Below, one piece after another: positions 6,268-49,678 of a DNA stretch of 64,000 bases; position 1 is the stretch's first letter; each line of letters opens with the position of its first letter. Under the pieces are notes generated by a model that was not told the origin of the DNA, ran no database searches, and worked only from the letters and a program-made list of their open reading frames with translations. Where the stretch lies: positions 68,793-132,792 of the forward strand of contig CALESQ010000076.1 of assembly GCA_937907455.1 (NCBI GenBank), in the 5' to 3' direction. Source of the DNA: an uncultured Caldilineales bacterium (GTDB lineage Bacteria; Chloroflexota; Anaerolineae; JAAEKA01). The translations under genes and the position numbers were made by a program.

Positions 6268-6342
6268 GCAGGTAGACAGGTAAACAAGTAGACAGGTAGA
6301 CATGTAGACAGGTACGCCGGAGGCGGGTAGACTGGTAACGGT
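6264..6342 (+). repeat. 8-bp-period short tandem repeat (GTAGACAR)n with an embedded CGCC-GGA-GGCG hairpin
   Basis: Reads GTAAGCAG GTAGACAG GTAAACAA GTAGACAG GTAGACAT GTAGACAG GTACGCCGGAGGCGG GTAGACTG GTAACGGT. The first unit contains the TAA stop of the GT4 gene. Confidence 0.85.
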
Positions 6343-7757: not shown

Positions 7758-7809
7758 AGCGTAAACAGCAAGGAGCCAGTAGCCATTCGGAAGCAACGTG
7801 GGTTGGCTT

Positions 7810-7850
7810 GGTCAGGAGATTGGGAACTATCCCACAGACAGGACCAAAGC
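7810..7850 (+). repeat. dispersed structured element, diverged copy
   Basis: GGTCAGGAGATTGGGAACTATCCCACAGACAGGACCAAAGC matches the GGTCWGGAGATTGGGAACCATCCCGCAGGGACCGGCC family also seen at 15019, 32221, 32428 and 43197. Confidence 0.7.
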
Positions 7851-7918
7851 GCCAGCCTTCTTCTGCACAGCTACTTACCCTTTACCCATACCCTTTGAAC
7901 TCACCCCTTAAAACTTCT

Positions 7919-11666: not shown

Positions 11667-14654
11667 CTAGGGGGTAGGTGGGGCTGAGGCCAGCATTTGA
11701 ATTTCAGCGGCTGACAGGGCGCGGGCATAGATGCGCAAATCATCAATCCGTCCGGGGAACAATTCCTGCGGCGTACCGGTGGAGTTGCTGTTCTGATTGC
11801 CGCCAATGTACACCGGCCGGGTTGTGTCTTTGGCAATTGCGCCTGTCAGCGAGCGCGATCCCGCTTGCACACCGTTGACGTACAGACGCATGAATGAACC
11901 ATCGTAGACACCCGCCACATGCAGCCATTGGCCGGTGGGCGCTGCGCCACCGTAAACAATCCCTGTGCCTGCGGTGGCAGAGTTGACGATCCAACCGTAC
12001 TGGTTGTTGTAAAAGCCTAAGCCCCACTGATCAAGGTACGACGTGCTGTATTGGCGTGAGACGACCAGTGACCAGTTACTGACATTGCTGTTGCGATACA
12101 CCCAGCCTACTACGCTGATGGCGCTGCTGATGCTGTTCAGACTGGTTGAAGCTGGTGAGCGGCCATAGTCGTTTACTCCATCCAGTTGGATCGCACCGCT
12201 GCCAGGGCCATTGGTCCAGACGGGACCGTTGTACCACGTGATCGTGTTGGCATTACCAGAGCTATCCAGCGCAGTTGTTCCACTTCCTTGTTCCATACGC
12301 CACCAGGCGATCAAGTTAGCGGTTGTGGTTGTGGGTGTGGGTGTGGCGGTGGGGGCAACCGCTGTGGCCGTGGGTGTGGCGGTGGGGGCAACCGCTGTGG
12401 CGGTGTGCGTGGGCGTGGCGGTGGGGGCAACCGCTGTGGCGGTGTGCGTGGGCGTGGCGGTGGGGGCAACCGCTGTGGCGGTGTGCGTGGGCGTGGCGGT
12501 GGGGGCAACCGCTGTGGCGGTGTGCGTGGGCGTGGCGGTGGGGGCAATCGCTGTGGCCGTGTGCGTGGGCGTGGCGGTGGGGGCAACCGCTGTGGCCGTG
12601 TGCGTGGGCGTGGCAGTAGGTGACGTGTTGGGTACTAACAGCCGCACATTGTCAATATAAAAAGTGGGCTTGCTGCTGCCAGTGTTCTCCTGCCAGGTGA
12701 GTCGAGCTATCTGGGTGGGATTGCCCAGTTGCGACCAGGGCACCACGAACTGGGTCCATTGTCCTGCCGTTGGTGTGAAGATGATTTTGGGGCTGGCCAC
12801 ACCGCTATCAGTTTGCTGGATGTGGAAATTCATGGAGCCACTGCCGGATACGCCGTATACCCAGAAGCTGATGCCAGTGTAAAGGGATGGGTTGACCAGG
12901 CTTTGCGAGCGCAGCGACAACCCTGCCCAACCTGTTGTATAGGTCAATGCGATGGATTGGGTGCCGCTTTGCACGGGCGTGATGTTAGCGAAGTTAATGG
13001 TGGTACCCCAGGACCAGCTTTGCCACCCTGCGGCCAATGCATCGCCGTAAACGATCACATCGGGGCTTGGCACGGGCGTAGGCGTAGCGGTGAAAGTCGG
13101 TCCCCCCGGGGTGTTGGTGGGCATTGCCGTGGGGGTAACAGTCGCCTCAGGTGTTGATGTGGGCGTGCTTGTGGCAACAGGCGTTGCAGTGGGCGTTGAG
13201 CCGGTTTGACCCGGCGGCAGATAGCCCTTGCTGCTGTCATCGAGGATCAGCACCCAGTCATTGCCTAGACCGCTGCTGGGCGGTGTAAACAAGCGTGTGC
13301 CCGAATTGCTGTAGGTGCCCAGGTTTTGCACGCCGCCATCGCGCGGGTTGTACCAGTAGCCGGTGACAGTGCTGCCGCTGATGCGTCCCATATTCACCGA
13401 GAAGGGTTGCCCGGTGGCGCTGTAAACAAACAGATAGTCCGTGCCGCGCGTGGCCTGAATGCGGTTATCCCCGCTCAAGGCATTGGTGATGATCCCTTGA
13501 TCGGGAATACGCACCAACTGCGGGCGAGAGATCATCAGCGCTTTAAGATATTGCATCTGCAGGGCGCCAGGCGCAGTAAGATCACCGAAATCGCCTACTC
13601 CGCTACCAGCCCACACATCATAATGCCCATAGGTGTGGCCGAAAGCGCCCGCGAAAACGTCCCAGTAGGCAATGGTGCGAATATCGGTAGCGGTGGCATA
13701 GCCGTTACCTGCGTTGAAGCAGATGGGAATATTCTCATACATCGGCTCCGAATCCATCACCGGCTTGACAGGGGTGAGATTGTAGCTGCTGCTGATCAGA
13801 TTCCACACATTGCTGCCTTTGCAGTGTCCAGTCTGCCAGGTGTTATAGTCAAGCCAGGCCGCGTTGTGAAACCAGGTAGCCGAAGTAGCATAGCCGCTGG
13901 GGTGATAGGTAAGCAGCACATCGTCAGGGTTGCCACCCGCGCCGTCAATAATGCCTTGCGCCATGGCCGCCCAGCCGTCAATCTGCGCCTGGTTGTCGGG
14001 ATCATAGTCACCGCCGAGCATCCAGATAACAGGCTTGTTGCCATAGCGCTGACCCAGGAAGTAGCCGTAGGTATAGCCTTTGCCACCTGAAAAAATGCCA
14101 TTCGCCATCCAGCTACCCCAGGCTGGCAGCATCACGGTGTACATGCCGAGTTGATAGGCGCGATCTACAATGTAGTCTACGTGGTCCCAATAGTCATACT
14201 GATAGGCATCGTTTGGGTCCGATCCGGGCGTTATGTTGGGCTGCGTCGGGTCTGAGTTGATAAACATCACATCGCCGTGGCCGTTGGGGGTGGTAATGCT
14301 CCACCACATCAGCACAGCCTGGGTTGCGGTAAACCCTTGCGCCGCCCGGGTGCTAAGGTAGTAATCAGCCTGGCTGCGGTTTGCGCCGTAGAACAGAGTC
14401 CACGCCTCATCACCCAGGTAAAAAAACGGGTCGCCATTACTGGCTTTGACAAGATAGCGACCATTGGTAGACACTTGCAGGGTATAAGGTCCTGCAAACG
14501 CTGCAGAGCGCTCGTTGCTCACGGCTGGAAGAGAACCCTCTACCGGCCTTCCGGCCTGCGGCAATAAAACTGTCAGGAGCAGCAGCAGGCTAACCAGACG
14601 AACCCATAAGGAACGATAGGGCGATTGTAAACCCTGAGCATATTGAAAATACAT
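11667..14654 (-). CDS. secreted multidomain glycoside hydrolase (DUF4038/GH140-like) with CBM-like and LamG/concanavalin-A-like domains
   Basis: Signal peptide; NGDPFFYLGDEAWTLF motif of DUF4038-type hydrolases; PT-rich linkers; a beta-sandwich CBM-like segment; and a C-terminal LamG_3-like segment (LDGVNDYG...FPGRIDDLRIYARALS). Confidence 0.75.
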   Translation of the reverse strand: MYFQYAQGLQSPYRSLWVRLVSLLLLLTVLLPQAGRPVEGSLPAVSNERSAAFAGPYTLQVSTNGRYLVKASNGDPFFYLGDEAWTLFYGANRSQADYYLSTRAAQGFTATQAVLMWWSITTPNGHGDVMFINSDPTQPNITPGSDPNDAYQYDYWDHVDYIVDRAYQLGMYTVMLPAWGSWMANGIFSGGKGYTYGYFLGQRYGNKPVIWMLGGDYDPDNQAQIDGWAAMAQGIIDGAGGNPDDVLLTYHPSGYATSATWFHNAAWLDYNTWQTGHCKGSNVWNLISSSYNLTPVKPVMDSEPMYENIPICFNAGNGYATATDIRTIAYWDVFAGAFGHTYGHYDVWAGSGVGDFGDLTAPGALQMQYLKALMISRPQLVRIPDQGIITNALSGDNRIQATRGTDYLFVYSATGQPFSVNMGRISGSTVTGYWYNPRDGGVQNLGTYSNSGTRLFTPPSSGLGNDWVLILDDSSKGYLPPGQTGSTPTATPVATSTPTSTPEATVTPTAMPTNTPGGPTFTATPTPVPSPDVIVYGDALAAGWQSWSWGTTINFANITPVQSGTQSIALTYTTGWAGLSLRSQSLVNPSLYTGISFWVYGVSGSGSMNFHIQQTDSGVASPKIIFTPTAGQWTQFVVPWSQLGNPTQIARLTWQENTGSSKPTFYIDNVRLLVPNTSPTATPTHTATAVAPTATPTHTATAIAPTATPTHTATAVAPTATPTHTATAVAPTATPTHTATAVAPTATPTHTATAVAPTATPTATAVAPTATPTPTTTTANLIAWWRMEQGSGTTALDSSGNANTITWYNGPVWTNGPGSGAIQLDGVNDYGRSPASTSLNSISSAISVVGWVYRNSNVSNWSLVVSRQYSTSYLDQWGLGFYNNQYGWIVNSATAGTGIVYGGAAPTGQWLHVAGVYDGSFMRLYVNGVQAGSRSLTGAIAKDTTRPVYIGGNQNSNSTGTPQELFPGRIDDLRIYARALSAAEIQMLASAPPTP
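12341..12614 (-). repeat. in-frame 39-bp tandem repeat (about 7 units) encoding PTATPTHTATAVA linker units
   Basis: Near-identical units GGCGGTGGGGGCAACCGCTGTGGCGGTGTGCGTGGGCGT on the plus strand. The protein shows APTATPTHTATAV repeated. Confidence 0.9.
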
Positions 14655-15018
14655 GGGGAAGCTCCTTTCTGCATCAATGGCGATAAACAGATGTGTTTTT
14701 TTGCCTTGTTAAACGAACACTATTGATGCATAAAGTATATAGATGTTTCGATAATACACCAATCTGCGCAAATGCTACGATATGTATTATCAGTCTTGTA
14801 GAATATAAATATCTGAAAACCATACAAATTGTATAATAATATTATGTTTATAACGCATTGGTTTTGATACTCAAATCAAGTATTTTTAACGCAAGTGTGT
14901 GAAAATCATTGCGAGTTTATTTGATCTGATTTGAAAATCCATCGGGTCGGTCCCTCCAGGGTGGTTCTCAATTTCCCGACTCTGCCCGTTCGTTTCATCT
15001 ACGGTTGTGCCCCATCGC

Positions 15019-15079
15019 CGGACTCGGTCAGGAGATTGGAAACCATCCCGCAGGGACCGGCCGGAGCGGAGCAGCATGG
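15019..15079 (+). repeat. dispersed structured element, full-length copy
   Basis: CGGACTCGGTCAGGAGATTGGAAACCATCCCGCAGGGACCGGCCGGAGCGGAGCAGCATGG. Shares both flanks with the long units of the 32.2-kb array. Confidence 0.8.
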
Positions 15080-23659: not shown

Positions 23660-24634
23660 ATGAGAGCTATTCAAATCAATCAGTTTGGCGGCCCAGATGT
23701 ATTGGTCGTCCGTGATATTCCTTTGCCTGAGCCGGGGCCGGGCCAGGTGCGGATCAAGGTAGCTGTAGCCGGTTTGAACTATATTGATACCTATCAGCGC
23801 AGTGGTGTATATGCTGTGCCGCTGCCGTTTATTCCCGGCATGGAGGCGGCAGGTGTGGTGGAAGCCCTGGGTCAGCAGGTGGCTGGCTTGAAGGTGGGCG
23901 ACCGTGTGGCTTGGTGCATGGTTCCGGGCACGTATGCCGAATACGCGTTGGCTCCTGCCGACAAAGTGGTGCCCCTGCCTGATGGCATCAGCCTGGATCT
24001 GGCTGCGGCTGTGCTGTTGCAGGGGATGACTGCCCACTATCTGGCGATCAGTACCTATCCTTTGCGGCCCGGTGACGTGGCTTTGGTACATGCCGCGGCC
24101 GGTGCTACCGGCTCGCTGTTGGTGCAGCTTGCCAAACGGGCCGGCGCGCAGGTGATTGCCACTGTGGGCAGCGCGGCCAAGGCTGAACTGGCGCGCGGCG
24201 ACGGAGCTGACGCGGTGATCAACTACCGCGAGCAGGACTTTGAGGCTGAGGTGAAACGCTTGACCGATAATCGCGGGGTAGATGTGGTGTACGACTCGGT
24301 GGGGCAGGCCACCTTCAACAAGAGCCTGAATAGCCTGCGCCCGCGCGGGCTGCTGGCCTTGTTTGGTCAGGCCAGCGGGGCGGTGCCCCCCTTCGAGCTG
24401 CAAACGCTCAACCAGCGTGGTTCGCTGTTCATCACACGGCCCAGCCTTGGACACTATATTGCCACGCGTTCCGAGTTGTTTAGCCGCGCCGGTGACCTGT
24501 TCCTGTGGCTGGCTGATGGCTCGCTGCGCGTGCGTATTGATCGCACTCTGCCGCTGGCCGAGGCTGCCGAAGCCCATCGCTTGCTGGAAAGTCGCCAAAC
24601 CGCGGGCAAGGTGTTGCTGGAGGTGGGGAGGTAG
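23660..24634 (+). CDS. qor: NADPH:quinone oxidoreductase (zeta-crystallin family MDR)
   Basis: [27 protein letters not shown] and [15 protein letters not shown] motifs. Confidence 0.85.
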
Positions 24635-24752
24635 ACAGGTAAGGAAGTAGACAAGTAGACAAATACGCCGAAGGCGGGTAGACAAGTACGCCGAAGGCGG
24701 GTAGGCAAGTAGACAGGTAAATAAGCAGACAAGTTGATAAGGAAGCAAGGAA
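24631..24752 (+). repeat. 8-bp-period short tandem repeat (GTAGACAR)n with two CGCC-GAA-GGCG hairpin inserts
   Basis: Reads GTAGACAG GTAAGGAA GTAGACAA GTAGACAA ATACGCCGAAGGCGG GTAGACAA GTACGCCGAAGGCGG GTAGGCAA GTAGACAG GTAAATAA GCAGACAA... The first unit contains the qor TAG stop. Confidence 0.85.
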
Positions 24753-27223: not shown

Positions 27224-27337
27224 GCGATGGCGTATTGTTCAGCGTGCGCCTGCGGTTAAAACCGCACCCTCTTACAGTTAAACCGGTTTCAGCCAGTTCA
27301 CACACATAGATAAACCTCCCTCTCCCTCTCCTGCTCC

Positions 27338-27377
27338 CTGTCTACCTGTGTACCTGTGTACCTGTGTACTTGTCTCC
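27338..27377 (-). repeat. 8-bp-period short tandem repeat, reverse orientation, variant unit
   Basis: CTGTCTAC CTGTGTAC CTGTGTAC CTGTGTAC TTGTCTCC, the reverse complement of GTAGACAG/GTACACAG units. Confidence 0.75.
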
Positions 27378-27414
27378 CTCTCTTCTTACCTCCCTCTCAA
27401 AGGACGCATATTGT

Positions 27415-29109: not shown

Positions 29110-29700
29110 ATGCCTTCCTTGCCGCCCTATTTGTTTTCGTTGTTGACTTTGCCTCTGTTGGCGAGCATGAACATCTTTGTGGTCATGCGGCGTCCGCGCG
29201 AGCCGCTTTCGTGGGGATTTACCGGCACACTGATTAGTTTATTCGTCTTCTTCCTGGGCGATGTCATGCAGTATCAGTATGGCATCTCGGTGGAAAGCAG
29301 CTTGATGTGGCAGTATATTGAAAGCCTTGGGGCCAATGGCACAGTGCTGTCGGGGTTGGCATTGATCCTGATATTGCGCAACCGTCGCTTGCTGCGGTGG
29401 GAATGGATTTTGTTTGTGTTTATCGCTGTGCGGGTGGTTTTTGATATGGTGTGGCTGGGCACTTTCGTTCGCCCTGAGGTGATCCAGACATGCACTAACA
29501 CCCTGGGCATGCCACGGCTCACCTGCCCGCCCGCCGATCGCTGGTCACAGTTTTTCTTTGCCCTGACCGGATTGGCGGTGATTGCGCTGTTTGTCAGCAC
29601 CGCCTTCAAGGTTACCGGCCCGCGCCGTCCCATTGTGCGGCGCTATCTGGTGTGGGCTGCTGTGATTGTGGCCCTGAACAGTGTTATTTGGCAGGGGTAG
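29110..29700 (+). CDS. hypothetical polytopic membrane protein
   Basis: 196 aa with about 6 hydrophobic segments. Its TAG stop overlaps the GTG start of the next gene by 1 nt. Confidence 0.5.
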   Translation: MPSLPPYLFSLLTLPLLASMNIFVVMRRPREPLSWGFTGTLISLFVFFLGDVMQYQYGISVESSLMWQYIESLGANGTVLSGLALILILRNRRLLRWEWILFVFIAVRVVFDMVWLGTFVRPEVIQTCTNTLGMPRLTCPPADRWSQFFFALTGLAVIALFVSTAFKVTGPRRPIVRRYLVWAAVIVALNSVIWQG

Positions 29701-30833
29701 TGGTCATTACCCAGCGCAACAACTCGTTGTTGTGGACCGGCGTAGCTGTTTTAATGGCGCTGGCGGTGCTGATGCGTATGTTTTTGGCGCTGGAGGAGAT
29801 GGAAACGGGCGTGCGTTTTCCCACTTTGGGCTGGCAGGCGTTGATGTGGCTGTTTGGCCTGCTGTTAGCTGTTTTTGCCGATCTGGTTTGGAAAAGCATG
29901 GAAGCGCCTGTGCTGACCATGATTGCCCTGGCGGTTGGCATGGCCGGCGGTGGCACGGCGTTGGTCAATTCGTTGTTGCATCACCCGGCCAAAGCCGATG
30001 CCTTAGCCTTTGCCCCGACAGGTGATCTCTCGCTTCAGCGCGCCGCTGTGGCGATGCCTTTCACGTCGTCACAGCCATTGGAAGCAGTGACATCCGATCC
30101 CTATGTCTTGCGCGTTTTCTTGTTTGGCCCCATGCGTGTGGTGCGTCAGGGAGAAAGTTTGGCCAACACGGCCGAAGTATGGCGGTCGGGCAAAACACGT
30201 TCGTTACTGGTGTTGCTGGCTCTGCGCCGCCATAACGGAGTGACGGCCTTTGACATTGCCGAAGCGTTGTGGCCGACCGGCGCGGAGATGGATGGCGATG
30301 CTGATCGCAAAAGTCAATCAGCTATGCGCAGCTATCTTTCTACCTTGCGTCGCGTGCTGGACCCCGAACCGCGCAGCGATCAGCCGCGCATTGTGCGTGA
30401 TGGTGAACGCTATTTCCTGCGCAGCGAAGGACTTTGGCTGGATTTGTGGGAGTTCGAGACGCTGGTAGAGCAGGCCGAGAAGCTGACTGCCAGTGCCGCT
30501 TTCGCCGAGGCGCTGGCCTGCTGGCAACAAGCTGTGGCGCTCTACTCGCCTGAAGGACTGCTGCCCGATGAGATGAATCTGCCTGCCGAGATCATCGAGC
30601 TTATGCGACAACGTACCCAACGCTGTTATTTGAAGGGACTGCGCATCCTGGCGCACGCCGAAGCCATAGATGAACGGGCTGTGACACTGTGGGAGGCACT
30701 CAATCAGGCGGACCCGTTCGACAACGAAGCCTTGCGCTGGCTAGTGAGTCATTATCAGAACACCAGCGACCGGCGCAAACTGCTTGAGCTGCTGCAACAC
30801 CATCCGGATGCGCAACGGCTGCTTAAAAGATAG
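29700..30833 (+). CDS. membrane-anchored SARP-like regulator (TM segments + OmpR-type wHTH + BTAD domain)
   Basis: About 4 N-terminal TM segments, then VFLFGPMRVVRQGE..KTRSLLVLLAL..IAEALWP (wHTH), then LDLWEFE..AL.CWQQAVALY (BTAD). Start may be GTG 29700 or 29652. Confidence 0.65.
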   Translation: MVITQRNNSLLWTGVAVLMALAVLMRMFLALEEMETGVRFPTLGWQALMWLFGLLLAVFADLVWKSMEAPVLTMIALAVGMAGGGTALVNSLLHHPAKADALAFAPTGDLSLQRAAVAMPFTSSQPLEAVTSDPYVLRVFLFGPMRVVRQGESLANTAEVWRSGKTRSLLVLLALRRHNGVTAFDIAEALWPTGAEMDGDADRKSQSAMRSYLSTLRRVLDPEPRSDQPRIVRDGERYFLRSEGLWLDLWEFETLVEQAEKLTASAAFAEALACWQQAVALYSPEGLLPDEMNLPAEIIELMRQRTQRCYLKGLRILAHAEAIDERAVTLWEALNQADPFDNEALRWLVSHYQNTSDRRKLLELLQHHPDAQRLLKR

Positions 30834-30941
30834 CGCATTGCTGCGGCCGGTCTCTTCAGCGGTTCGTACTCCCTGAAACACGCTACTTTGCGCTGCTTTT
30901 ATCCCTGATTTTACCGCTGTGACCGTCTCAGGTAGCGAAAA

Positions 30942-31257: not shown

Positions 31258-32091
31258 CTAAGGCCAAATTTCTACCCCAGCCGCAGCAAACAGCGGCTGG
31301 GCAGCGGCCTGATCCTGCGCGGGGCTGGCAGGCAACGGAACCAGCACGGCATCGTGCCCCGCGGCACTCAGCCGTTGATTGGCCGCTGCGCAGGCTGCGG
31401 CGTCCCAGCCCAGCCTGCCAATTAGCCGTGTTTGCGCAGTAACGCGGCGCACGTTGAAATCTTCCAGCAGGGCACGCAGGCTAAACTGGCCCGGTGCTGT
31501 GCCGGCTCCTTCATCCGGTGCGGCAAAACTTAACAAGGCGTTGGGTTGAGCAAAGGCTAAAATGCGGCTTGCTGCACCCGGCGCACCCATCGCCAGGGCA
31601 ATGGTTGGGCGCCGCGCTGCGGCCAGCACCTGCACCGCACGCGCGCAGTCGGTGAGTGAGTGCGCCATACCCACCACCTTCACCACATCGGCTCCGGCGG
31701 CCCATAGTGCAGCAGCCTGCGCAGCCAGATCGTTCGGCATGGCGGCGAAGTTGTGTTGTGACAAAATTATGCGGGTGCGGCTGCGGTCAAACTGCGGCAG
31801 CACGGCAGCGGCATCCCCTTCCAGGTCTACATAATCTGCACCAAGCTGCGCAGCCTGACGCAACAGCTTGAGTCTGGCGGCTTCACTGCCGGGCCATCGG
31901 CCTCCTTCGCGCGGGGGACGGCAGGTGATAATCACCGGTAGGGGGCGGTCGGCCAGCAGTGCAGGCAGATCAAATTCCTGCATTAAATCCAGGCGCAGTT
32001 CTGCCAGATCGGCGCGACCAACGGCTTGCTGCATGGCCCGACGGGCCGCTGTGGTGGTGGGTTCAGCCAAAGCCAAAGCAATTAGAGTCAT
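31258..32091 (-). CDS. aroD: 3-dehydroquinate dehydratase type I with a vestigial shikimate-dehydrogenase N-domain tail
   Basis: DLAELRLDL, ITCRP..EGG and VKVVGMA (Schiff-base Lys region) are typical of type I DHQase. The last ~60 aa resemble the AroE N-terminus (TRLIGRLG...DAVLVPLP). Confidence 0.7.
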   Translation of the reverse strand: MTLIALALAEPTTTAARRAMQQAVGRADLAELRLDLMQEFDLPALLADRPLPVIITCRPPREGGRWPGSEAARLKLLRQAAQLGADYVDLEGDAAAVLPQFDRSRTRIILSQHNFAAMPNDLAAQAAALWAAGADVVKVVGMAHSLTDCARAVQVLAAARRPTIALAMGAPGAASRILAFAQPNALLSFAAPDEGAGTAPGQFSLRALLEDFNVRRVTAQTRLIGRLGWDAAACAAANQRLSAAGHDAVLVPLPASPAQDQAAAQPLFAAAGVEIWP

Positions 32092-32220
32092 GGGATGATT
32101 GTAGCTTGGGCTGCGACAACACGCAAGCGGATAGTTTAGCGATGGGTGCGCTGGTCTTGCGCACCTGGACTTGACAACATGCCGCTTTCGCATTCATAAT
32201 TTGAGTTGGCGCTCTATCCG

Positions 32221-32750
32221 GCTCTGGCCGGTCCCTGCGGGATGGTTCCCAATCTCCAGACCGTGCCAGTGTGCTTGCGGACTCGGTCTGGAGACCGGCC
32301 GCAGCATGGACGTGTGCTTGCGGACTCGGTCTGGAGACCGGCCGCAGCATAGGAAGCATCCCGCGGAGACCGGCCGCAGCATAGGAATTACCCCGCGGAG
32401 ACCGGCCGCAGCATGCAGGACTTATTCGCTCTGGCCGGTCCCTGCGGGATGGTTCCCAATCTCCAGACCGTGCCAGTGTGCTTGCGGACTCGGTCTGGAG
32501 ACCGGCCGCAGCATGGGAAGCATCCCGCGGAGACCGGCCGCAGCAAAGGAATTACCCCGCGGAGACCGGCCGCAGCATGGACGTGTGCTTGCGGACTCGG
32601 TCTGGAGACCGGCCGCAGCATAGGAATTACTCCGCGGAGACCGGCCGCAGCATAGGAATTACTCCGCGGAGACCGGCCGCAGCATAGGAATTACTCCGCG
32701 GAGACCGGCCGCAGCATAGGAATCATCCCGCGGAGACCGGCCGCAGCATA
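32221..32750. repeat. complex tandem array: 12 copies of core GGAGACCGGCCGCAGCA plus two inverted full dispersed elements
   Basis: Core starts at 32290, 32333, 32365, 32397, 32497, 32529, 32561, 32604, 32636, 32668, 32700 and 32732, giving spacings of 43, 32, 32, 100, 32, 32, 43, 32, 32, 32, 32. Full elements lie at 32221..32262 and 32428..32469. Confidence 0.9.
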
Positions 32751-32770
32751 CATTTGATACTTTTTTTGAT

Positions 32771-33457
32771 ATGGATACTCAGCAATTACCCGAAGCGATG
32801 AGCGAAAGCGTTGAAATGTACCTGCTGCGCGTTGCCCTCCTGCAAGAGGATGACCGCCCGGTGCCTATCTCCGCGCTGGCCGAGGAAATGACGGTATCGC
32901 CAGTGTCGGCTAACCAGATGTGTCGCAAGCTGGAAGAACGTGGGCTGGTACATTACGAGCCTTACAAAGGGGTGACGCTTACCCTGAACGGCGAGGCGCT
33001 GGCTATGCGTGTGCTGCGCAAGCGCCGTTTGTGGGAGGTGCTGCTGGCCGATAAACTAGGCTTAGGCCCCGCTCAGGCCGAGGATATTGCTTGCCGCTTC
33101 GAGCATGTCACCCCAGACTGGCTGGGCGAACGTCTGGCCGATTTTCTTGGCAATCCGACCTATAGCCCGCAGCAAGAGCCGATCCCCCCGAGTATTGGGG
33201 TAGCCGTGCGCCGGCCGCGTTTGATGCTGGCCGCGTTGGGGCTTAATCAGCCGGCGCAGGTGGGGCGGGTGCTGGCCGAGGATGCTACGCGCGAGTTTCT
33301 ACGCAGTCATGGCTTGCAGCCCGGTGCGTCTGTGCGTGTGTTGGCATTGGCTGATGCCGGTGCTTTGCTGGTGGAAAGCAACGGGGATCGGCTGATGATT
33401 GGCGCCGAGCTGGCGCAGCAGATTGAGGTGATCACGGCGCGGGCGGTGAAGCCCTGA
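32771..33457 (+). CDS. DtxR/MntR-family metal-dependent transcriptional regulator with a C-terminal FeoA/SH3-like domain
   Basis: SESVEMYLLRV..ISALAEEMTVSPVSANQMCRKLEERGLV wHTH, a dimerisation helix region, and a C-terminal FeoA-like segment. Start may be 32771 or the ATG at 32798. Confidence 0.85.
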   Translation: MDTQQLPEAMSESVEMYLLRVALLQEDDRPVPISALAEEMTVSPVSANQMCRKLEERGLVHYEPYKGVTLTLNGEALAMRVLRKRRLWEVLLADKLGLGPAQAEDIACRFEHVTPDWLGERLADFLGNPTYSPQQEPIPPSIGVAVRRPRLMLAALGLNQPAQVGRVLAEDATREFLRSHGLQPGASVRVLALADAGALLVESNGDRLMIGAELAQQIEVITARAVKP

Positions 33458-35423: not shown

Positions 35424-35543
35424 GAGAATTTCTCCGTTTGTTAGGTTGGCAGGGTGAAGAGTTAAGAGTTGAGAATTGATAAACAACTGGTAAATGATTA
35501 ACGACCGAAGACCGGATGACAAAGTACACATATTTACTTTTTC

Positions 35544-35613
35544 TTTGTCTACTTGTCTACTTCTTCCTTGTCTACTTTTCCCTTGTCTACCTGTCTACTT
35601 CTTCCTTACCTGT
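35544..35613 (-). repeat. 8-bp-period short tandem repeat, reverse orientation, in the dnaK-lexA divergent region
   Basis: Repeated TTGTCTAC units (TTGTCTAC TTGTCTAC TTCTTCC TTGTCTAC TTTTCCC TTGTCTAC CTGTCTAC TTCTTCC TTACCTGT). Confidence 0.8.
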
Positions 35614-42485: not shown

Positions 42486-43151
42486 ATGTGTGGACGTTAT
42501 ACGATTTTCACCGACCCTGGCCATCTGGCGGAGCGCTTTCAGGCTGAATTACCTGCGGATGGCTTGCAGGCGCGCTATAACGCCGCGCCCACGCAGTCGT
42601 TGCCGGTGATCCTAAACACCGACGACCCGCGGCGCATCGAACGGTTGCGGTGGGGGCTGGTGCCCTCTTGGTCCCAAGATCCTGCCATCGGCAGCCGCAT
42701 GATCAACGCCCGCGGTGAAACTGTGGCCGAAAAGCCTGCTTTTCGTGCTGCCTTGCGCAAGCGGCGTTGCCTGGTGCTGGCAGATGGCTTTTATGAATGG
42801 CGCAAGAATCCCATCGGCCCCAAAACACCGCTGCGCTTCACCCTGGCTGATGGAGCGCCTTTTGCCTTTGCCGGTCTGTGGGAAATGTGGAATGCGCCGG
42901 ACGGCAGTGTGTTGCGCACCTTTACGATCATCACCGGTCAGCCTAACGAGCTGGTAGCGCCGGTACATGACCGTATGCCGGCTATCCTGCTGCCTGAGCA
43001 TGAGGCGATCTGGCTGGATAATGCTGCCGAGCCGGCGATTTGGCAGGACATCTTGCGCCCCTACCCGTCCGAGCGTATGGCGGTCACGTCAGCTTCGCGT
43101 CGCGTCAACGCGGTCAGCAACGACGATGTGGCGGTGTTGACCGATGCTTAA
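42486..43151 (+). CDS. yedK: SOS response-associated peptidase (SRAP/YedK family, abasic-site DNA-protein crosslink)
   Basis: The N-terminal MCGRY catalytic Cys2 motif, YNAAPTQ, RWGLVP, NARGET and FYEW motifs are typical of SRAP proteins. Confidence 0.9.
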   Translation: MCGRYTIFTDPGHLAERFQAELPADGLQARYNAAPTQSLPVILNTDDPRRIERLRWGLVPSWSQDPAIGSRMINARGETVAEKPAFRAALRKRRCLVLADGFYEWRKNPIGPKTPLRFTLADGAPFAFAGLWEMWNAPDGSVLRTFTIITGQPNELVAPVHDRMPAILLPEHEAIWLDNAAEPAIWQDILRPYPSERMAVTSASRRVNAVSNDDVAVLTDA

Positions 43152-43196
43152 GCCAGCGACAAGCCGCCACAACCGTGGCGGCAAACGGACGGGCAT

Positions 43197-43240
43197 GGTC
43201 AGGAGATTGGGAACCGTCCCGGAGGGGGGCCGGTCCGAAC
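43197..43240 (+). repeat. dispersed structured element, diverged copy
   Basis: GGTCAGGAGATTGGGAACCGTCCCGGAGGGGGGCCGGTCCGAAC, 46 nt after the SRAP stop. Confidence 0.7.
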
Positions 43241-43611: not shown

Positions 43612-46314
43612 ATGAAGAATCCCCTTTTGTTTGGTCGCCGGGCTGAGTTGGTGCCGGCCTGGGTTAGTGAAAACAATGCAGTTGCCGCTGGCCCCGCGCT
43701 GCCACTGCATAAAACCAGCAGCGGTTCGAACCGCACGGTGCGCGCCGGCCGTCGTCGTCCCACTGGCTCATCGGATGGCCCGCGCGATCGCGCAGAGGCC
43801 CCGCGCCGTGAACGCCCCCCGGCTTCATCCGGCGGCGGCAGCTTTGGTGGCTCTTCGGGCGGCTTCACCAGCGGCTCATCTGGCAGTTCTTCCAGCGGTT
43901 CTGCGGGCGGTGGCGGTCTGGGCAGTTTGCTGGGCGGTTCCGGCGGCTCCTCTGGCGGCTCTTCCGGCGGCGGCCTGGGGATGCCTGGCGGTGGCCGTGG
44001 CGGAATGCGCTTGCCGTTGCCGCTGCTGTTGCTGATCGGTCTGTGCCTGTGTTTGGTGCTGGGCATGGCGGTGGCTGGCGGTGGTCTGGGCAGCCTGCTG
44101 GGGGGCAGCTCTGGCAACAGCGGTAGTTCCAGCGGTGATGCTTTTAGCGGCTTCGATCAGGGCCAAAGTGACCAGTCAGGGTTCGATCAGTCTGCCAGCG
44201 GCAGCGATCAAGGCGGAGCTGTGGCTCCTGCTGCGCCATTGCCCACTGCGCGCCCTGATCTGGCTGCGGGATCGGGCAGTACCCCCGGCCAGAAATGGAC
44301 CATCATGCTGTACCAGGATGCTGATGACAAAATCCTGGAACAGGACATCTACATTGATCTGAATGAAGCTGAGCTGATCGGTTCCACCGACCGCGTGAAC
44401 GTGGTCGCACAAATGGATCGTTATCGCGGTGGTTTCAGCGGCGACGGCGACTGGACCGAAGCGCGGCGTTACTATATCACCCGTGACAACAACCTGAGTC
44501 GCCTGGGTTCGCAACTGGTAGAGAGTCTGGGCGAAGTCAACATGTCGCATCCGCAAACCCTGGTGGATTTTGTCACCTGGGCTATGAAAAACTACCCCGC
44601 GGACAAGTACGTGTTGATCATGTCGGATCACGGCATGGGGTGGCCGGGCGGTTTCAGCGATCCGGCTACCGGTAACGATTCGCAAAGTGTTACCCGTGCC
44701 CCGTTGGGCAATGCGCTGGGCAACCACATGTACCTGAACTTCATCCAGGCGGCATTGGGTGAAATTCAAAAGCAAACCGGCCTGGACAAGTTTGAAATCG
44801 TCGGCATGGATGCCTGTTTGATGGGCCACATCGAGGTGTTGAGTGCTTTGCAGCCCTACGCTCGTTACAGCATCGTGTCGCAGGAGACCGAACCTGCGCT
44901 GGGCTGGGCCTATGCCAGCTTCCTCAATGACTTGGTGCGCAACCCGGATATGAATGGCGCACAGTTGGGGCAGGCAGTGGTACGCAGCTACATTGACGAG
45001 GACCAACGTATTCTCAATGACCAGGCGCGCTCAGAATGGGTGCGCAGTCCGGTATCGGCTCGTCAGTTGACTAGCCAGCTCTCTCAGAACATCACCCTGA
45101 CTGCGGCGGATCTGGCAGCCGTGCCCGCCTTGAACGACAGCCTGAACAATTTACTGTATCAGATGCAGCAGGAAGACCAGCGCAATGTGGCCAAGGCCCG
45201 CACCTATGCCCAGTCGTTCACCAGCATCTTTGGCAACAGCGTGCCCCCATCCTACATTGACCTGGCAAACTTTGTGGGGCTGATCAAGCAAGCCAGCAAC
45301 AGCCAGGCCATTGACCAGGCGGCTGATGGCGTGTTGGCCGCGCTGAGCCGGGTGATTGTGGCCGAAAAGAACGGCGCAGGCAAGCCGGGCGCTAATGGCG
45401 TATCCATTTACTTCCCGAACTCGCAGCTTTTCCAGAACCCGGCCACCGGCTTGCAGTCTTACACGGTGGTAGCCGATGCGTTCGCCACAAAATCGTTGTG
45501 GGACGATTATCTGGCTTTCCATTACACCGGTCGTACCTTTCAGGCTGCTGCGGCGCAGGCCGTTGTGCCTGATGCCACGGCTGCGCTGCGCACTCCGGGT
45601 GCGGGCATCAACATTGCCATCGGCCCCATCGAGCAGTCCAGCGACACCGCGGCCCCCGGCTCGCCGGTACTCTTCACCACCGAGGTGAGCGGCGACAACA
45701 TCGGCTACATCACCTTCTTCGTGGGCTACTACGATCAGGCTAACAACGCCATCTTTGTGGCCGATCAGGATTACCTGGAAAGCTCTGGCACGCAGCAGAT
45801 CAATGGCGTCTATTACCCCGATTGGGGTGCGACACCGTTTACCCTGGAATTTGAATGGGAACCGCTGATGTTTGCCATCAGCGACGGTAAAACCGATGCC
45901 CTGGCCGCGTTGATGCCGGAAAGCTATGGCCGCCGCGGTGAAGATGCCATCTATACAGTGGACGGCGTGTACACGTTCAGCGACGGCGAGCGGCGTGATG
46001 CCCGTATGTACTTCCAAAACGGTGTGATGACCCAGGTGTTCGGCTTTACGCCGAATATCAGCAGCGGCGCACCCGCGCAGATCAGCCCGCAAGCCGGTGA
46101 CACCTTCACCGTGCAGCAGAAATGGTTGGACCTGGACGCGCAGGGCAAGGTCACTGCTACCAGCACGCAACTGGCCGAAACGCTGACCTTTAGTAATCAG
46201 CCCTTCACCTGGAAGGAACTCGACGCCGCTGCCGGTAACTATATCTTTGGCTTCACGGTTGAGGATATGGACGGCAATGAAACCTCAGCGTTTGCTCAGG
46301 TAGCGGTGGAGTAA
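43612..46314 (+). CDS. clostripain-like cysteine peptidase (family C11) with a Gly/Ser-rich N-terminal region and a TM anchor
   Basis: WTIMLYQDADD, LIMSDHGMGWPG (catalytic His) and VGMDACLMG (catalytic Cys). The first ~190 aa are low-complexity G/S/R sequence plus one TM segment. Confidence 0.7.
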   Translation: MKNPLLFGRRAELVPAWVSENNAVAAGPALPLHKTSSGSNRTVRAGRRRPTGSSDGPRDRAEAPRRERPPASSGGGSFGGSSGGFTSGSSGSSSSGSAGGGGLGSLLGGSGGSSGGSSGGGLGMPGGGRGGMRLPLPLLLLIGLCLCLVLGMAVAGGGLGSLLGGSSGNSGSSSGDAFSGFDQGQSDQSGFDQSASGSDQGGAVAPAAPLPTARPDLAAGSGSTPGQKWTIMLYQDADDKILEQDIYIDLNEAELIGSTDRVNVVAQMDRYRGGFSGDGDWTEARRYYITRDNNLSRLGSQLVESLGEVNMSHPQTLVDFVTWAMKNYPADKYVLIMSDHGMGWPGGFSDPATGNDSQSVTRAPLGNALGNHMYLNFIQAALGEIQKQTGLDKFEIVGMDACLMGHIEVLSALQPYARYSIVSQETEPALGWAYASFLNDLVRNPDMNGAQLGQAVVRSYIDEDQRILNDQARSEWVRSPVSARQLTSQLSQNITLTAADLAAVPALNDSLNNLLYQMQQEDQRNVAKARTYAQSFTSIFGNSVPPSYIDLANFVGLIKQASNSQAIDQAADGVLAALSRVIVAEKNGAGKPGANGVSIYFPNSQLFQNPATGLQSYTVVADAFATKSLWDDYLAFHYTGRTFQAAAAQAVVPDATAALRTPGAGINIAIGPIEQSSDTAAPGSPVLFTTEVSGDNIGYITFFVGYYDQANNAIFVADQDYLESSGTQQINGVYYPDWGATPFTLEFEWEPLMFAISDGKTDALAALMPESYGRRGEDAIYTVDGVYTFSDGERRDARMYFQNGVMTQVFGFTPNISSGAPAQISPQAGDTFTVQQKWLDLDAQGKVTATSTQLAETLTFSNQPFTWKELDAAAGNYIFGFTVEDMDGNETSAFAQVAVE

Positions 46315-46317
46315 GAA

Positions 46318-46403
46318 CAGCAAAGCGAGCTTTGCAATTCCAAAGCGGAGTTGCAAAGCTCGCTTTGCGATTCCAAGTGGGAGGTGCGAAGCTCGCTTTG
46401 TCG
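46318..46403. repeat. perfect 18-bp stem hairpin plus a ~31-bp direct repeat between convergent genes
   Basis: GCAAAGCGAGCTTTGCAA (46320..46337) pairs with TTGCAAAGCTCGCTTTGC (46351..46368). The right arm and its 5' flank are repeated directly as GATTCCAAGTGGGAGGTGCGAAGCTCGCTTTG. Confidence 0.75.
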
Positions 46404-48773
46404 TTACATTCCCTGTAACAGCATGGTTAAAATCAGGCGGGCAGCGGCCTTGTCTAGCGGCTGGTTGTTGTTGCCGCATTTAGGACTTTGAATACAGCTT
46501 GGGCAGCCATCCTCGCACGGACAGGTGGCGATCACATCGTGAGCCGCGCGCCACAGCGCGGGCAACTCGGCAAAGCCGCGTTCGGCAATACCAACACCGC
46601 CGGGGAATCCATCGTAGATGAAGATCTGGGCCAGATCGGTGTCAGCGTGGCGTGGGGTACTCAGCCCGCCGATATCCCAACGGTCGCACATGGCAAAAAG
46701 CGGCAGCAATCCAATGCAGGCATGCTCGGCTGCATGGATGCCCCCCAGGAAATCCAGCCCGCGCCGCGCGCAGGCCGCGGCGATTTCGGGAGCCACGTCC
46801 CACCACAAGGCAGCGGTCTCGAAAGTGCTTTGCGGCAGTTGCAGCATCTCCTCGCCTAACACCTCATCTGAGTAGTGACGCAGGCGACGGTAGCCGACTA
46901 CTTGCGAGGTAGTGCGCACCGCCCCGAAATAGGCATAGCCACCGGGGATGGGACGATGACGCAACGAACGGATGATGCGCACATCGCTCCACTCGCGCGC
47001 CGTGGTATAGTAGTCGGTTTCCACCGGACGCAACTGAGCAAAGCCGATGTCGTCGTCGTAATGTGTCACCAGATAGCTTTCGCCCTGGTGCAGGTAGATG
47101 GCCCCCGGATGCACGCGCTGCGGCGCACTGCTGCTTTCAATTTCTTCCAACACGCGGTTGGCGCGGGCTTCATCCAACAGGGCAAAGCGTCGGCCACCTG
47201 CCGAACGCAGGCTTACCTGCTCGGCGGGGTGCTGCGACGGCCCCTGATAGACCCAACGATCGCCGCGAAATTCCAACACATTTTGCTGCTCCAGTTGCAA
47301 CATAGCGGGCACGAAGCCGGGGCCAAACAGGGCTTCGTCGTCGAAGTGGCCCGGCGTGGCCGCGGTGCTGAGAGGTACCTCAACCGCGGCGCAAGGCAGG
47401 TGACGCGCCAACACGTAGAGATTGTCGGGGGCAATCAGGGCATGTTCGTGGGGGCGGCCAAACAGGTCAGCAGGGTGACGCATGAAGTATTGGTCCAGGG
47501 GATTGTCCTGGGCCACCAGCACGGCCAGTGAAGGTTCACTGCTGCGCCCGGCGCGCCCGGCCTGCTGCCAGAGGCTGGCAATGGTGCCGGGATAGCCCAC
47601 CAGCACCGCGGCATCCAGCCCGCCCACATCAATGCCCAGTTCCAGGGCGTTGGTGGCGGTAACGCCGATCAGCTTGCCGCTGAACAGGTCAGCCTCGATT
47701 TGGCGGCGCTGCTCCGGTGTGTAGCCGGCACGGTAGGCGGCCACGCGGTCGCTTAGGGTCTGACTTTGTGGCGAGGCTGGGGCAGCACGGCCGCGGGGAG
47801 TTTTGCTCAGCTCGGCGCGGGCATAGCGCAGTATCAACTCGGCCACCTTGCGGGCACGTGTGAAGACAATGGTGCGCGTTTGGTTTTCTATCAGCGTGGT
47901 GAAGAGCGTGGTGGCCTCGCTGTTGGCGCTGCGCCGTGCTGTTTTTGCCTTGTCGAGAAAGGGCGGGTTCCACAGCGCGAAGGTGCGTGGCCCTGCCGGG
48001 CTGCCATCCTCATCTATTACCTGAGCATCCAGCCCGGTGAGCGCGGCAAAATGCTGGCCGGGGTTGGCAATGGTGGCGCTGGCGGCAATGAAGATCGGTT
48101 CGCTGCCATAGAGCGCAGCTACACGCCGCAGCCGACGCAACACACAGGCCACTTGAGACCCAAACACGCCGCGATAGGTATGCGCCTCATCTACCACTAT
48201 GTAGCGCAGGTTGTGAAAGAAACTGGCCCACAGCGTGTGGTTGGGCAAAATACCCACATGCAGCATGTCGGGGTTGGTGAGGATGATTTGCCCCTGCTGA
48301 CGCAGCTTGCTGCGGCGGCTTTGTGGTGTATCGCCGTCATACGAGCCGGCTGTCACCGGCAGCGCGGCAGGTTTGCGATTGCGGGCATCAGCCACGGTGC
48401 AGCCCAGCTCACCCAGACTGCGCAGTTGATCTTGAGCCAGCGCCTTGGTGGGGAACAGGTACAGGGCGCGGGCGGTGGGCTGTTGCAGGATGGCTTGCAA
48501 AACCGGCAGGTTGTAGGCCAGTGTTTTGCCGCTGGCGGTGCTGGTGACCAACACGACATGCCGTCCGGCCAGTGCCGCCTTGATTGCCTCGGCCTGATGC
48601 GCGTAGAGTCGTTCGATTCCCTGCGCGTGAAGCTGATCGCGCAGGGGGCGCGGCAAGGCGCGGCCCAACGCGGCGTAGCGCGCGCTGCGCCGCGGCATCT
48701 GCTCCAGGTGAATAAGCTGCCCCTGGTAAAAGGGCTGGCGTTTAAGGCGTTGCAGAAAGGCTTGAACATCCAT
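46404..48773 (-). CDS. DEAD/DEAH-box helicase with a C-terminal DUF1998 zinc domain (MrfA/YprA-like)
   Basis: TSTASGKT Walker A, VVDEAH, the helicase C domain, and a C-terminal CPCEDGCPSCIQSPKCGNNN Cys4 motif. Start trimmed to MDVQAFLQRL at 48773. Confidence 0.85.
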   Translation of the reverse strand: MDVQAFLQRLKRQPFYQGQLIHLEQMPRRSARYAALGRALPRPLRDQLHAQGIERLYAHQAEAIKAALAGRHVVLVTSTASGKTLAYNLPVLQAILQQPTARALYLFPTKALAQDQLRSLGELGCTVADARNRKPAALPVTAGSYDGDTPQSRRSKLRQQGQIILTNPDMLHVGILPNHTLWASFFHNLRYIVVDEAHTYRGVFGSQVACVLRRLRRVAALYGSEPIFIAASATIANPGQHFAALTGLDAQVIDEDGSPAGPRTFALWNPPFLDKAKTARRSANSEATTLFTTLIENQTRTIVFTRARKVAELILRYARAELSKTPRGRAAPASPQSQTLSDRVAAYRAGYTPEQRRQIEADLFSGKLIGVTATNALELGIDVGGLDAAVLVGYPGTIASLWQQAGRAGRSSEPSLAVLVAQDNPLDQYFMRHPADLFGRPHEHALIAPDNLYVLARHLPCAAVEVPLSTAATPGHFDDEALFGPGFVPAMLQLEQQNVLEFRGDRWVYQGPSQHPAEQVSLRSAGGRRFALLDEARANRVLEEIESSSAPQRVHPGAIYLHQGESYLVTHYDDDIGFAQLRPVETDYYTTAREWSDVRIIRSLRHRPIPGGYAYFGAVRTTSQVVGYRRLRHYSDEVLGEEMLQLPQSTFETAALWWDVAPEIAAACARRGLDFLGGIHAAEHACIGLLPLFAMCDRWDIGGLSTPRHADTDLAQIFIYDGFPGGVGIAERGFAELPALWRAAHDVIATCPCEDGCPSCIQSPKCGNNNQPLDKAAARLILTMLLQGM

Positions 48774-48949
48774 GAGGTGTGGTCGCTGCCGGGTGATGGT
48801 GCTGCGCTGAATTGTACGGGCAGACGTGGCGGGTGTCAAGCAAGTGGACTTGTGTGGCTGGATCGGATATAATGCGGCTGTGGAGATTTTTAGCCGGGCA
48901 GGGCCGAGGGTTTGTCTTGCTCCACTCAGGAAAGGGCGAAGGAACTGAT

Positions 48950-49678
48950 ATGGAAACCAATGACTTGTATCCCCTGCCGCAGGGGGAGGATCTGCCAGCG
49001 GAGGTGGTGCCGACGGTGCTGCCTGAGAGCGGGGAGAGCCTCGCTGCGCTGCCCCCTGGGCACGCTTGGCCACCTAAACCCTGGCTAACGATCTGGACGG
49101 CACCGCGCAGTACCATACGGGCCATCCTTAACGCGGATCCAAAACGCTATGTGCTGGCGCTGGCGGCCCTTAGCGGCATCCTCAATTCGCTGAATCAGGC
49201 ATCCTCGCGCAGTGTGGGTGATAGCCTGCCGCTTTGGGCGATCTTTTTGCTGGCGCTGATCCTCGGTCCCCTTGTCGGCATAATCAACCTGTATATCAGC
49301 GGTTTTATTTTGGACCTGTCCGCGCGTGCCTTTAAAGGCAGTGGTGATAGTGAACGGACGCGCACAGCCCTGGCGTGGGCCTCTATCCCGGCAATAGCCT
49401 CCCTGGTGTTGTGGCTGTTTGAACTGCTGCTTTACGGTGGAGATATGTTTACCACTATCGCACCGCGCCTTGAGAATAACCCGTTGCTGCTGCTTTTTCC
49501 TATAGTCGAATTTGTGTTAGCTGTGTGGGCCTTTTTCCTGCTGGTAAAGACGTTTGCCGAGGTGCAGCGTTTTTCTGCCTGGCGCAGTCTGGCGGCAATT
49601 TTACTCCCTGCCTTGATTGTGTTTGTGTTGTTGTTTGCCTGCCTGGTGGTCGTTATCGGCCTGAGAATTTCCCCCTGA
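48950..49678 (+). CDS. Yip1-domain-like membrane protein
   Basis: Soluble N-terminus, then 5 TM segments (IWTAPRSTIRAILNADPKRYVLALAALSGI...). ATG at 48950 with AAGGGCGAAGGA upstream. Confidence 0.5.
   Translation: METNDLYPLPQGEDLPAEVVPTVLPESGESLAALPPGHAWPPKPWLTIWTAPRSTIRAILNADPKRYVLALAALSGILNSLNQASSRSVGDSLPLWAIFLLALILGPLVGIINLYISGFILDLSARAFKGSGDSERTRTALAWASIPAIASLVLWLFELLLYGGDMFTTIAPRLENNPLLLLFPIVEFVLAVWAFFLLVKTFAEVQRFSAWRSLAAILLPALIVFVLLFACLVVVIGLRISP

Follow-up and report, generated by a model that had tools for sequence, protein, structure and literature searches.

A head-to-tail array of REP-like hairpins between aroD and a DtxR-like regulator gene in an uncultured Caldilineales bacterium

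The repeat array between aroD and the DtxR-like gene

The locus analyzed here lies in a 64-kb stretch of DNA (the window) and comprises aroD, which encodes a type I 3-dehydroquinase, a gene for a metal-dependent regulator of the DtxR/MntR family that has a FeoA domain at its C terminus, and an array of short repeats between the two (Table 1). The regulator contains the Pfam domains Fe_dep_repress, Fe_dep_repr_C, and FeoA, and its first ATG is the conserved start in an alignment of six homologues. With the 277-aa aroD call of public gene callers, the gap between the genes measures 679 bp (32092-32770), and the array (32221-32748, 528 bp) occupies 78% of it. An initial annotation of this DNA had described the whole gap as 580 bp long and filled by repeats, except for 20 nt before the ATG. 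Both figures had to be revised, since 22 nt separate the array from the ATG and a further 129 bp of non-repeat DNA, including a promoter-like site, was found on the aroD side. As that annotation had observed, the AT/T-rich 22 nt contain no Shine-Dalgarno sequence.

Table 1. Features of the locus and dispersed copies of the element in the window (position 1 is the first nucleotide of the window)
Feature	Position	Strand	Evidence or remark
Dispersed long-form copy, partly degenerate	7803..7837	+	overlaps unverified 294-aa GTG ORF (7661-8545)
Inverted pair of long-form elements, REPIN-like doublet, intergenic	14935..15075		nhmmer E=1e-13 per arm
Arm 1 of this pair	14935-14995	-	
Arm 2 of this pair	15014-15073	+	
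Dispersed copy directly after stop codon of BTAD-domain gene (29652-30833)	30834..30891	-	
aroD (type I 3-dehydroquinase), left flanking gene	31258..32091	-	277 aa; Pfam DHquinase_I E=1.8e-38
Putative sigma-70-type promoter, TTGACA-18-CATAAT (11/12)	32171..32200	+	consensus match only
REPIN-like doublet 1	32221..32309	+	exact duplicate of 32428-32516
Doublet 1, part 1: inverted REP-like element, CCAG type, 21-nt loop insertion	32221-32269		
Doublet 1, part 2: 8-nt spacer, then complete direct REP-like hairpin	32278-32306 (with flanks 32273-32309)		
Complete REP-like hairpin (43-nt unit, core 32333)	32316..32352	+	covariance model 35.2 bits; TRF period 43
Two 32-nt half-REP-like units (cores 32365, 32397)	32353..32413	+	
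Non-repeat spacer, 14 nt, separating two superblocks	32414..32427	+	sequence reading
REPIN-like doublet 2, identical to doublet 1	32428..32516	+	duplication; covariance model
Two 32-nt half-REP-like units (cores 32529, 32561)	32517..32577	+	3 mismatches here in independent assembly
Complete REP-like hairpin (43-nt unit, core 32604)	32587..32623	+	covariance model 35.2 bits
Four 32-nt half-REP-like units (cores 32636, 32668, 32700, 32732)	32624..32748	+	unit number uncertain
AT/T-rich stretch, 22 nt before ATG, without Shine-Dalgarno sequence	32749..32770	+	
DtxR/MntR-family metal-dependent regulator, C-terminal FeoA domain	32771..33457	+	228 aa
Dispersed long-form copy, 31 nt past stop codon of ORF 42486-43151	43182..43239	+	

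The array is built around a 17-nt core, GGAGACCGGCCGCAGCA, which occurs in 12 exact copies in the window, all on the plus strand, against a chance expectation of 0.02. An exact search placed these copies where they had been reported (starts at 32290, 32333, 32365, 32397, 32497, 32529, 32561, 32604, 32636, 32668, 32700, and 32732), and a copy with one mismatch was found on the minus strand at 30839. The core-to-core spacings described earlier (eight of 32 nt, two of 43 nt, and one of 100 nt) were also reproduced, and Tandem Repeats Finder returned periods of 32 nt and 43 nt. At three of the 32-nt junctions (32630, 32662, and 32694), the perfect palindrome CTCCGCGGAG is present, and the remaining five carry one-base variants of it, in agreement with the initial annotation. 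The inverted elements that it had placed at 32221 and 32428 are likewise there; both are of the long form discussed below, and each opens one copy of an exact 89-nt duplication (32221-32309 = 32428-32516). Altogether, 12 of the 14 array units are direct and two are inverted.

Two thirds of the array units are half rather than complete hairpins. The half units, eight of 32 nt in all, consist of the loop, right arm, and AGC tail of a hairpin, preceded by the 3' part of a 21-nt loop insertion. Their resemblance to the 3' half of the long element, which had been noticed before, amounts to 26 identical positions out of 32. A lone half unit has no fold of its own (-3.6 kcal/mol, z=-0.2); as had been proposed, half units can pair with their neighbors via the junction palindromes. 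A CRISPR-like reading of the array was rejected, as its units adjoin without unique spacers, and a coding reading of the ORF at 32171-32623 was dismissed as a repeat artifact (a spurious repeat-peptide ORF).

The exact regulator and AroD proteins were recovered from JGI samples 3300014348 and 3300014349, from ENA ERZ795037 and ERZ28615159, from Logan SRR5576004, and from the NCBI MAG GCA_040275545.1 (labelled Caldilineales bacterium), and the array was seen in six sample assemblies. It is highly improbable that the array, or most of its length, is an artifact of short-read mis-assembly or gap filling. Gaps and breaks do occur at this place: in the public record of the same 80.8-kb contig (JGI Ga0181821_1000650), 83 N replace 74 nt (32627-32700), an ENA scaffold (L120) has 100 N spanning the array, and all other contigs, six in number, terminate inside it. 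However, an independent ENA contig reproduces 32092-32615 and a partner contig 32605-32748, so that both array edges and 524 bp of the interior are found again, with just three mismatches, in independent assemblies of six samples, and comparable arrays are present in many other assemblies. The array is therefore real, and doubt is confined to the number of identical 32-nt units. Because every short-read assembly breaks or has Ns within the array, the number of such units counted towards its 3' end represents a minimum-path estimate and is uncertain.

The hairpin unit and its distribution in Chloroflexota

The complete unit is a hairpin of the form GCGGC-N-CGGTC-(N)GGA-GACCGGCCGC-AGC, with a 10-bp stem containing one bulged base, an (N)GGA loop, and a 3' AGC tail; the core GGAGACCGGCCGCAGCA corresponds to its right arm, loop, and tail. 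It is thus a short imperfect palindrome within the 20-40 nt range that characterizes REPs, and the copy in the window has a fold of -10.9 kcal/mol (z=-3.1). With a covariance model derived from this structure, only four strong complete hairpins were detected in the 64 kb, all in the array and all at about 35 bits (32273-32309, 32316-32352, 32480-32516, and 32587-32623), and the two inverted long elements of the array scored about 17 bits. Doublet 1 scored 35.0 bits on the plus strand and 17.1 bits on the minus strand, and its DNA fold reached -23.9 kcal/mol (z=-3.5).

When the model was run on 722 kb of fetched loci, it gave 167 hits, a number that reflects the fact that these loci had been picked for having a hit. 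In an alignment of the best 150 of the 167 hits, 97.6% of the cells are paired and compensatory changes occur in five of the 10 stem pairs, for example GCGG/CCGC, GTGG/CCAC, GGGG/CCCC, CTGG/CCAG, and GGTC/GACC versus GGCG/CGCC. Double changes were observed in 93 cells, compared to 20.5 in shuffled alignments, and none of 500 shuffles reached 93, although all these figures lean towards the structure because the alignment was fitted to the model. The covariation that the initial annotation had suggested looking for is present. The loop GGA and the tail AGC are essentially invariant even among the 63 rows without a match to the search pattern given below. The left flank lies outside that pattern and has the conserved form G[C/T]GGC-N, which completes the 10-bp stem. 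No GTAG or CGTC tag was found at the hairpin end, which has the AGC tail (GCTG on the opposite strand) instead. A scan of the whole window at Rfam gathering thresholds returned no match, the matches from a permissive Rfam scan of the array were all below threshold and chiefly to plant and animal miRNA precursors, and scans for tRNA and tmRNA found none.

Besides the array, seven dispersed elements occur at five sites in the 64-kb window, and all sit between large ORFs, except the copy at 7803-7837. An inverted partner with a CCAG or CCAC stem is very often located 5-10 nt upstream of a hairpin, giving heterodimeric doublets like those of REPINs. In the window, this inverted arrangement was found at 14935-15075, 32221-32309, and 32428-32516. 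The 89-nt module at 32221-32309 aligns with canonical doublets of seven other Chloroflexota genomes, except that the loop of its inverted partner contains 21 additional nt, CCTGCGGGATGGTTCCCAATC. Since the doublets of these seven genomes are free of the insertion, what had been called the full element is the insertion-bearing variant, that is, the canonical hairpin plus a lineage-specific 21-nt loop insertion, and not the ancestor. The initial annotation had regarded the array as an internally deleted derivative of a dispersed element. Its origin from a dispersed element is upheld; the internal deletion is not, as the hairpin in the 43-nt unit is the canonical one of the family as a whole and the long form has gained sequence. 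Among the fetched loci, the long form was seen in loci of the source organism only, which is a weak test as it was the short form that had served to select the loci.

To follow the family in other genomes, the exact pattern CGGTC(N)RGAGACCGGCCGCAGC was scanned with one genome per species. At least 97 stretches matched, mostly in Anaerolineae, Caldilineales, Ardenticatenaceae, Promineifilaceae, and Ca. Leptofilum, with some in MAGs of Planctomycetota, Nitrospirota, and Armatimonadota among the matches listed. Matches in Streptomyces, Nocardia, Nonomuraea, and similar genera were set aside as probable chance hits without the conserved left flank; at least the four hits in Streptomyces and actinomycetes fall inside one conserved gene. 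A scan of metagenomes for two cores 12-40 nt apart revealed arrays of GGAGACCGGCCGCAGCA at unrelated loci in 14 other contigs (58-72% G+C), and the periods of arrays elsewhere are 21, 33, 39, 40, 46, 50, and 87-90 nt. Copies of the hairpin are spread over Chloroflexota genomes, frequently as inverted doublets or head-to-tail arrays, the latter arrangement being common in this family. Head-to-tail arrays with periods of 21 to 50 nt recur in independent lineages, and in some of them the units start at the GGA loop and finish at the AGC tail.

Association with RAYT genes and comparison with known systems

REPs are selfish hairpin elements that are thought to be spread by RAYT transposases. Starting from the repeats, we clustered all ORFs within 400 nt of the elements in 111 repeat-selected loci, and one recurrent non-repeat family was obtained. 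It consists of proteins of about 180 aa (L016, L026, L087, and L111, with fragments in L015, L017, and L060), which contain an HUH motif (PTHVHLIV) and a YLHDNP motif; such an HUH/Tyr protein adjoins the hairpin in 7 of the 111 loci. The two proteins that were scanned, those of L026 and L111, scored 81 and 84.7 bits against NCBIfam NF047646, the model of REP-associated tyrosine transposase (RAYT), which is only just above its cutoff of 80. A Pfam search with the RAYT-like proteins gave no hit, including to Y1_Tnp, and the best PDB match was TnpArep of E. coli (4er8, E=0.049), with the HUH and YxxxNP motifs aligned. At E<=1e-20, 849 homologues were retrieved; some are named RayT or REP-associated tyrosine transposase by their sources, and among the matches listed the organism labels are all of Chloroflexota. 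Many of the RAYT contigs measure no more than about 1 kb.

The complete RAYT genes in L026, L087, and L111 have hairpins of inverted orientation on both sides, and in L016 an array is present on the 5' side of the gene only. Large arrays directly adjoin the RAYT gene in L015-L017. In the opposite direction, four RAYT genes (L127, L129, L131, and L132) were picked by protein similarity alone, and in all four the upstream hairpin copy closest to the gene lies on the minus strand and those immediately downstream lie on the plus strand, with one additional minus-strand copy downstream of the gene in L131. The upstream hairpins of L132 alternate in orientation, as in BIMEs, and the same gene on a contig from another sample (L134) has nine such hairpins compared to seven in L132. 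Among the seven repeat-selected and the four protein-selected loci, hairpin copies on both sides were seen in eight. The association comes from relatives, as there is no RAYT gene within the 64-kb window. A protein considered as the RAYT of the source organism (P0147), which had been picked for matching source types, was dropped as coming from other samples.

A RAYT gene flanked by inverted REPs has been termed a REPtron (PMC2817692, PMC3733652), and this arrangement was found in relatives (L026, L087, L111, L127, L129, L131, and L132). The family resembles the E. coli REP/BIME system with TnpA_REP (4er8) in several respects: short GC-rich imperfect palindromes that are arrayed and apparently extragenic and multicopy, an HUH/Tyr transposase gene flanked by inverted REPs, and conserved unpaired loop and tail nucleotides. 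The Chloroflexota RAYT is nevertheless distant from that of E. coli, as judged by the PDB and Pfam searches above, and the GTAG tag of E. coli is replaced by the AGC tail. E. coli BIMEs alternate in orientation, whereas the array in the window is mostly head-to-tail with a majority of half hairpins; regular alternation was absent from the window and present beside the RAYT genes of L132 and L134. The REPINs of P. fluorescens SBW25 (PMC3116915, PMC3337134) are comparable in that the mobile unit is apparently an inverted REP doublet with a short spacer, that singlets, doublets, and higher-order clusters coexist, and that two stem variants combine in heterodimeric doublets. They belong to another phylum and sequence family, one partner in the window has the 21-nt loop insertion, and tandem half units are not a described feature of REPINs. 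The GTAG-23 REPs of Thermomicrobium roseum (Chloroflexi; PMC3733652), compared by description and not by sequence, come from the same phylum and a GC-rich genome and are largely clustered, but they are GTAG-tagged, unlike the family in the window.

Overall, the element in the window shows most of the features that define REP/REPIN-RAYT systems, except the tag. Since the hairpin covaries, is widespread in Chloroflexota, and flanks RAYT genes, the array is very probably a cluster of REP elements, a known element type, from a Chloroflexota family with a cognate RAYT. Several observations run contrary to this assignment, among them the lack of a RAYT gene in the window, the missing Pfam Y1_Tnp hit, and the NCBIfam scores just above the cutoff. 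The REP tag is described as a GTAG or CGTC tetranucleotide that stays unpaired at one end of the element (PMC3733652), and the family has a GCTG/AGC tail in its place; in addition, the array in the window is mostly in one orientation, and head-to-tail REP dimers are rare in proteobacterial families (PMC3733652). REP clusters both beside and away from RAYT genes have already been described (PMC3733652, PMC2817692), contrary to the earlier statement that no element with this architecture was known. For the core GGAGACCGGCCGCAGCA and its sequence family, no description was found in the literature searched; the associated protein has already been named RayT in databases.

Proposed origin of the array and its place in the predicted leader of the regulator gene

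The initial annotation had located the array where the promoter and operator of the regulator gene should be. A near-consensus sigma-70-type site, TTGACA-18-CATAAT, was instead found 20 nt upstream of the array and is the only site of this type in 31900-33000. The distance from the end of its -10 element to the ATG is 570 nt as the window stands and 42 nt without the array. Similar sites precede the regulator gene in relatives, with corresponding distances of 37 nt in L126 (TTGACA-17-TAAGAT) and 29 nt in L124 (TTGACA-17-TACCAT). Because the sites of the relatives lie 29-37 nt before the ATG, the array probably separates the start codon of the DtxR-like gene from its likely promoter. No array or hairpin was found upstream of the regulator gene in the relatives L122, L124, and L126, whose regulators are 85%, 70%, and 72% identical and whose intergenic regions measure 16, 54, and 248 nt. 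A T-run without a Shine-Dalgarno sequence directly precedes the ATG in L122 and L126, and GGAG is present in L124. Since the relatives have no array and short leaders, the array would be a recent lineage-specific insertion that subsequently expanded. Similar arrays scattered over other loci and their absence from relatives are part of what the initial annotation had associated with a neutral REP-like expansion, and both fit such an expansion.

According to the proposed mechanism, a REPIN-like doublet may have been inserted by a RAYT into the short leader (about 35 nt) of the DtxR-like gene. The locus would then have grown by slipped-strand mispairing or by unequal recombination between identical cores, giving the 43-nt complete units, the 32-nt half units, and a superblock duplication of roughly 207 nt. 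The array would be transcribed from the putative promoter at 32171-32200 as a hairpin-rich leader of about 565 nt, and the final 22 AU-rich nt before the ATG would remain free, so that translation could still start. Any effects on expression, such as pausing, RNase processing, or altered mRNA stability, would be a by-product and not the work of a designed metal-responsive operator.

Other explanations of the array have been weighed against this origin. The initial annotation had left three of them side by side, namely iteron-like protein binding, a structured leader RNA, and a REP/BIME-like cluster, and it is the last that the data favor. We consider it unlikely that the transcribed REP array now serves as a co-opted cis-regulatory 5' UTR which tunes the DtxR-like gene by attenuation, RNase processing, or mRNA stabilization. 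Its position between a near-consensus promoter and the ATG, the AU-rich 22 nt left outside the repeats, and the highly structured leader that is predicted (-296 kcal/mol and z=-9.3 for a 600-nt RNA) would suit such a role, and effects of REPs on mRNA stability and on termination are known (PMC3733652). However, any cluster of palindromic repeats would be expected to fold strongly, the relatives at 70-85% identity have no array, the Rfam matches were sub-threshold junk, and arrays of the same kind stand at unrelated loci. It is very improbable that the phased 17-nt cores form an iteron or operator array bound by the DtxR-like regulator or another DNA-binding protein, even though eight spacings are exactly 32 bp, or about three helical turns, and the array adjoins a regulator gene. 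The likeness to plasmid iterons extends to direct repeats of 17-22-bp cores with regular spacing, but here the core makes up half of a dispersed hairpin that is common to dozens of genomes at unrelated loci and occupies chromosomal sites in the hundreds. In other arrays the period varies between 21 and 90 nt, and the phasing is therefore not conserved. Moreover, no DtxR/IdeR-type box was found within 3 mismatches anywhere in the window, the called genes around the array do not include a replication initiator, and the relatives without an array speak against this reading too.

A further idea, to which we give little credence, is that Chloroflexota REPs are processed unlike proteobacterial ones, that the arrays are footprints of RAYT cleavage and strand transfer, and that the array in the leader is a contingency locus. 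If so, the arrays would have been made by cleavage at the loop or tail and not by replication slippage, and the leader array would be a live RAYT substrate whose changes in length switch the expression of the DtxR-like gene.

With the array read as a REP cluster, an apparently new regulatory architecture is replaced by a testable and ordinary explanation, and a REP family with its RAYT clade is defined for Anaerolineae, Caldilineales, and Ardenticatenaceae. Such hairpin arrays break short-read assemblies of Chloroflexota MAGs and create spurious repeat-peptide ORFs. The GGA loop, the AGC tail, and the head-to-tail arrays of this family offer a second, non-GTAG system for studying how RAYTs recognize REPs.

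Array sequence and the start of the DtxR-like gene

Across 32627-32700, inside the 12-core REP array, the window carries 74 nt made up of identical units of 32 nt. At the corresponding place (2848-2930), this contig's public JGI record (L001) shows 83 N, and the window therefore derives from a gap-filled or different assembly version. Downstream of the array, a T-run without a Shine-Dalgarno (SD) sequence abuts the ATG of the gene for the DtxR-like metal-dependent regulator. Of three relatives compared, L122 and L126 share this arrangement, and L124 has GGAG before the ATG instead. The T-run may reflect a lineage habit of SD-independent initiation.

Other repeats in the window

A second repeat family is composed of tandem octamers of the GTAG-containing type (C/A)A(G/A)GTAGA, with small hairpins, GTACGCCG(A/G)AGGCGGGTAGAC, scattered among them, and it may represent a GTAG-tagged REP-like family. 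Its stretches are mainly intergenic relative to large ORFs. One copy lies immediately upstream of the ATG of the 663-aa dnaK ORF, within which public gene callers place the dnaK start 108 nt further inside. The 39-nt tandem repeat falls within a 995-aa ORF, 11667-14654 (-), and is probably a coding 13-residue repeat. Each copy of the 33-nt repeat contains the palindrome GCAAAGCTCGCTTTGC; the repeat region sits between ORFs 43612-46314 (+) and 46404-49073 (-), with a one-base overlap with the former.

Repeats and T-runs located in the window and in related loci
Feature	Window	Relatives	Copies
T-run before ATG of DtxR-like gene	32749-32773	L122 336-350; L126 3990-4003	
Second repeat family	6261-6340, 24627-24730, 27337-27379, 35535-35607		four stretches
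39-nt tandem repeat, GTGGGCGTGGCGGTGGGGGCAACCGCTGTGGCGGTGTGC	12337-12614		7.3 (95% identity)
33-nt repeat	46320-46400		2.5

The REP hairpin in other genomes

The 21-22-nt REP hairpin was also detected in MAGs of Planctomycetota and Nitrospirota (L024, L061, L065, L096, L107, and L117), where its partner is a different neighbouring hairpin, CGACCGAAGGTCTCC...GGAGACCTTCGGTCG. Its presence there could be due to horizontal spread of the REP/RAYT (REP-associated tyrosine transposase) system or to binning error. The REP 21-mer was further found within a conserved coding gene of ~494 aa in Streptomyces and actinomycete genomes (L042, L059, L066, and L072). These matches lack conservation of the left flank typical of the REP and are therefore probably chance occurrences in high-GC coding sequence, not REPs.

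In Caldilineales ABC2.10 and Caldilineae HK-STAS-CHLO-19, the REP hairpin sits inside a larger repeat unit of ~100 nt with the layout GCATCTGAGACGACCATGCGCTACTCGCACAACCATGGATGAAAATCGAGGCGGCA-REP-AGCGTCTATTTTCAAGTCAGG (loci L025, L055, L057, L058, L094, L100, and L105). Thus, the REP serves as a building block in composite repeats that are lineage-specific.
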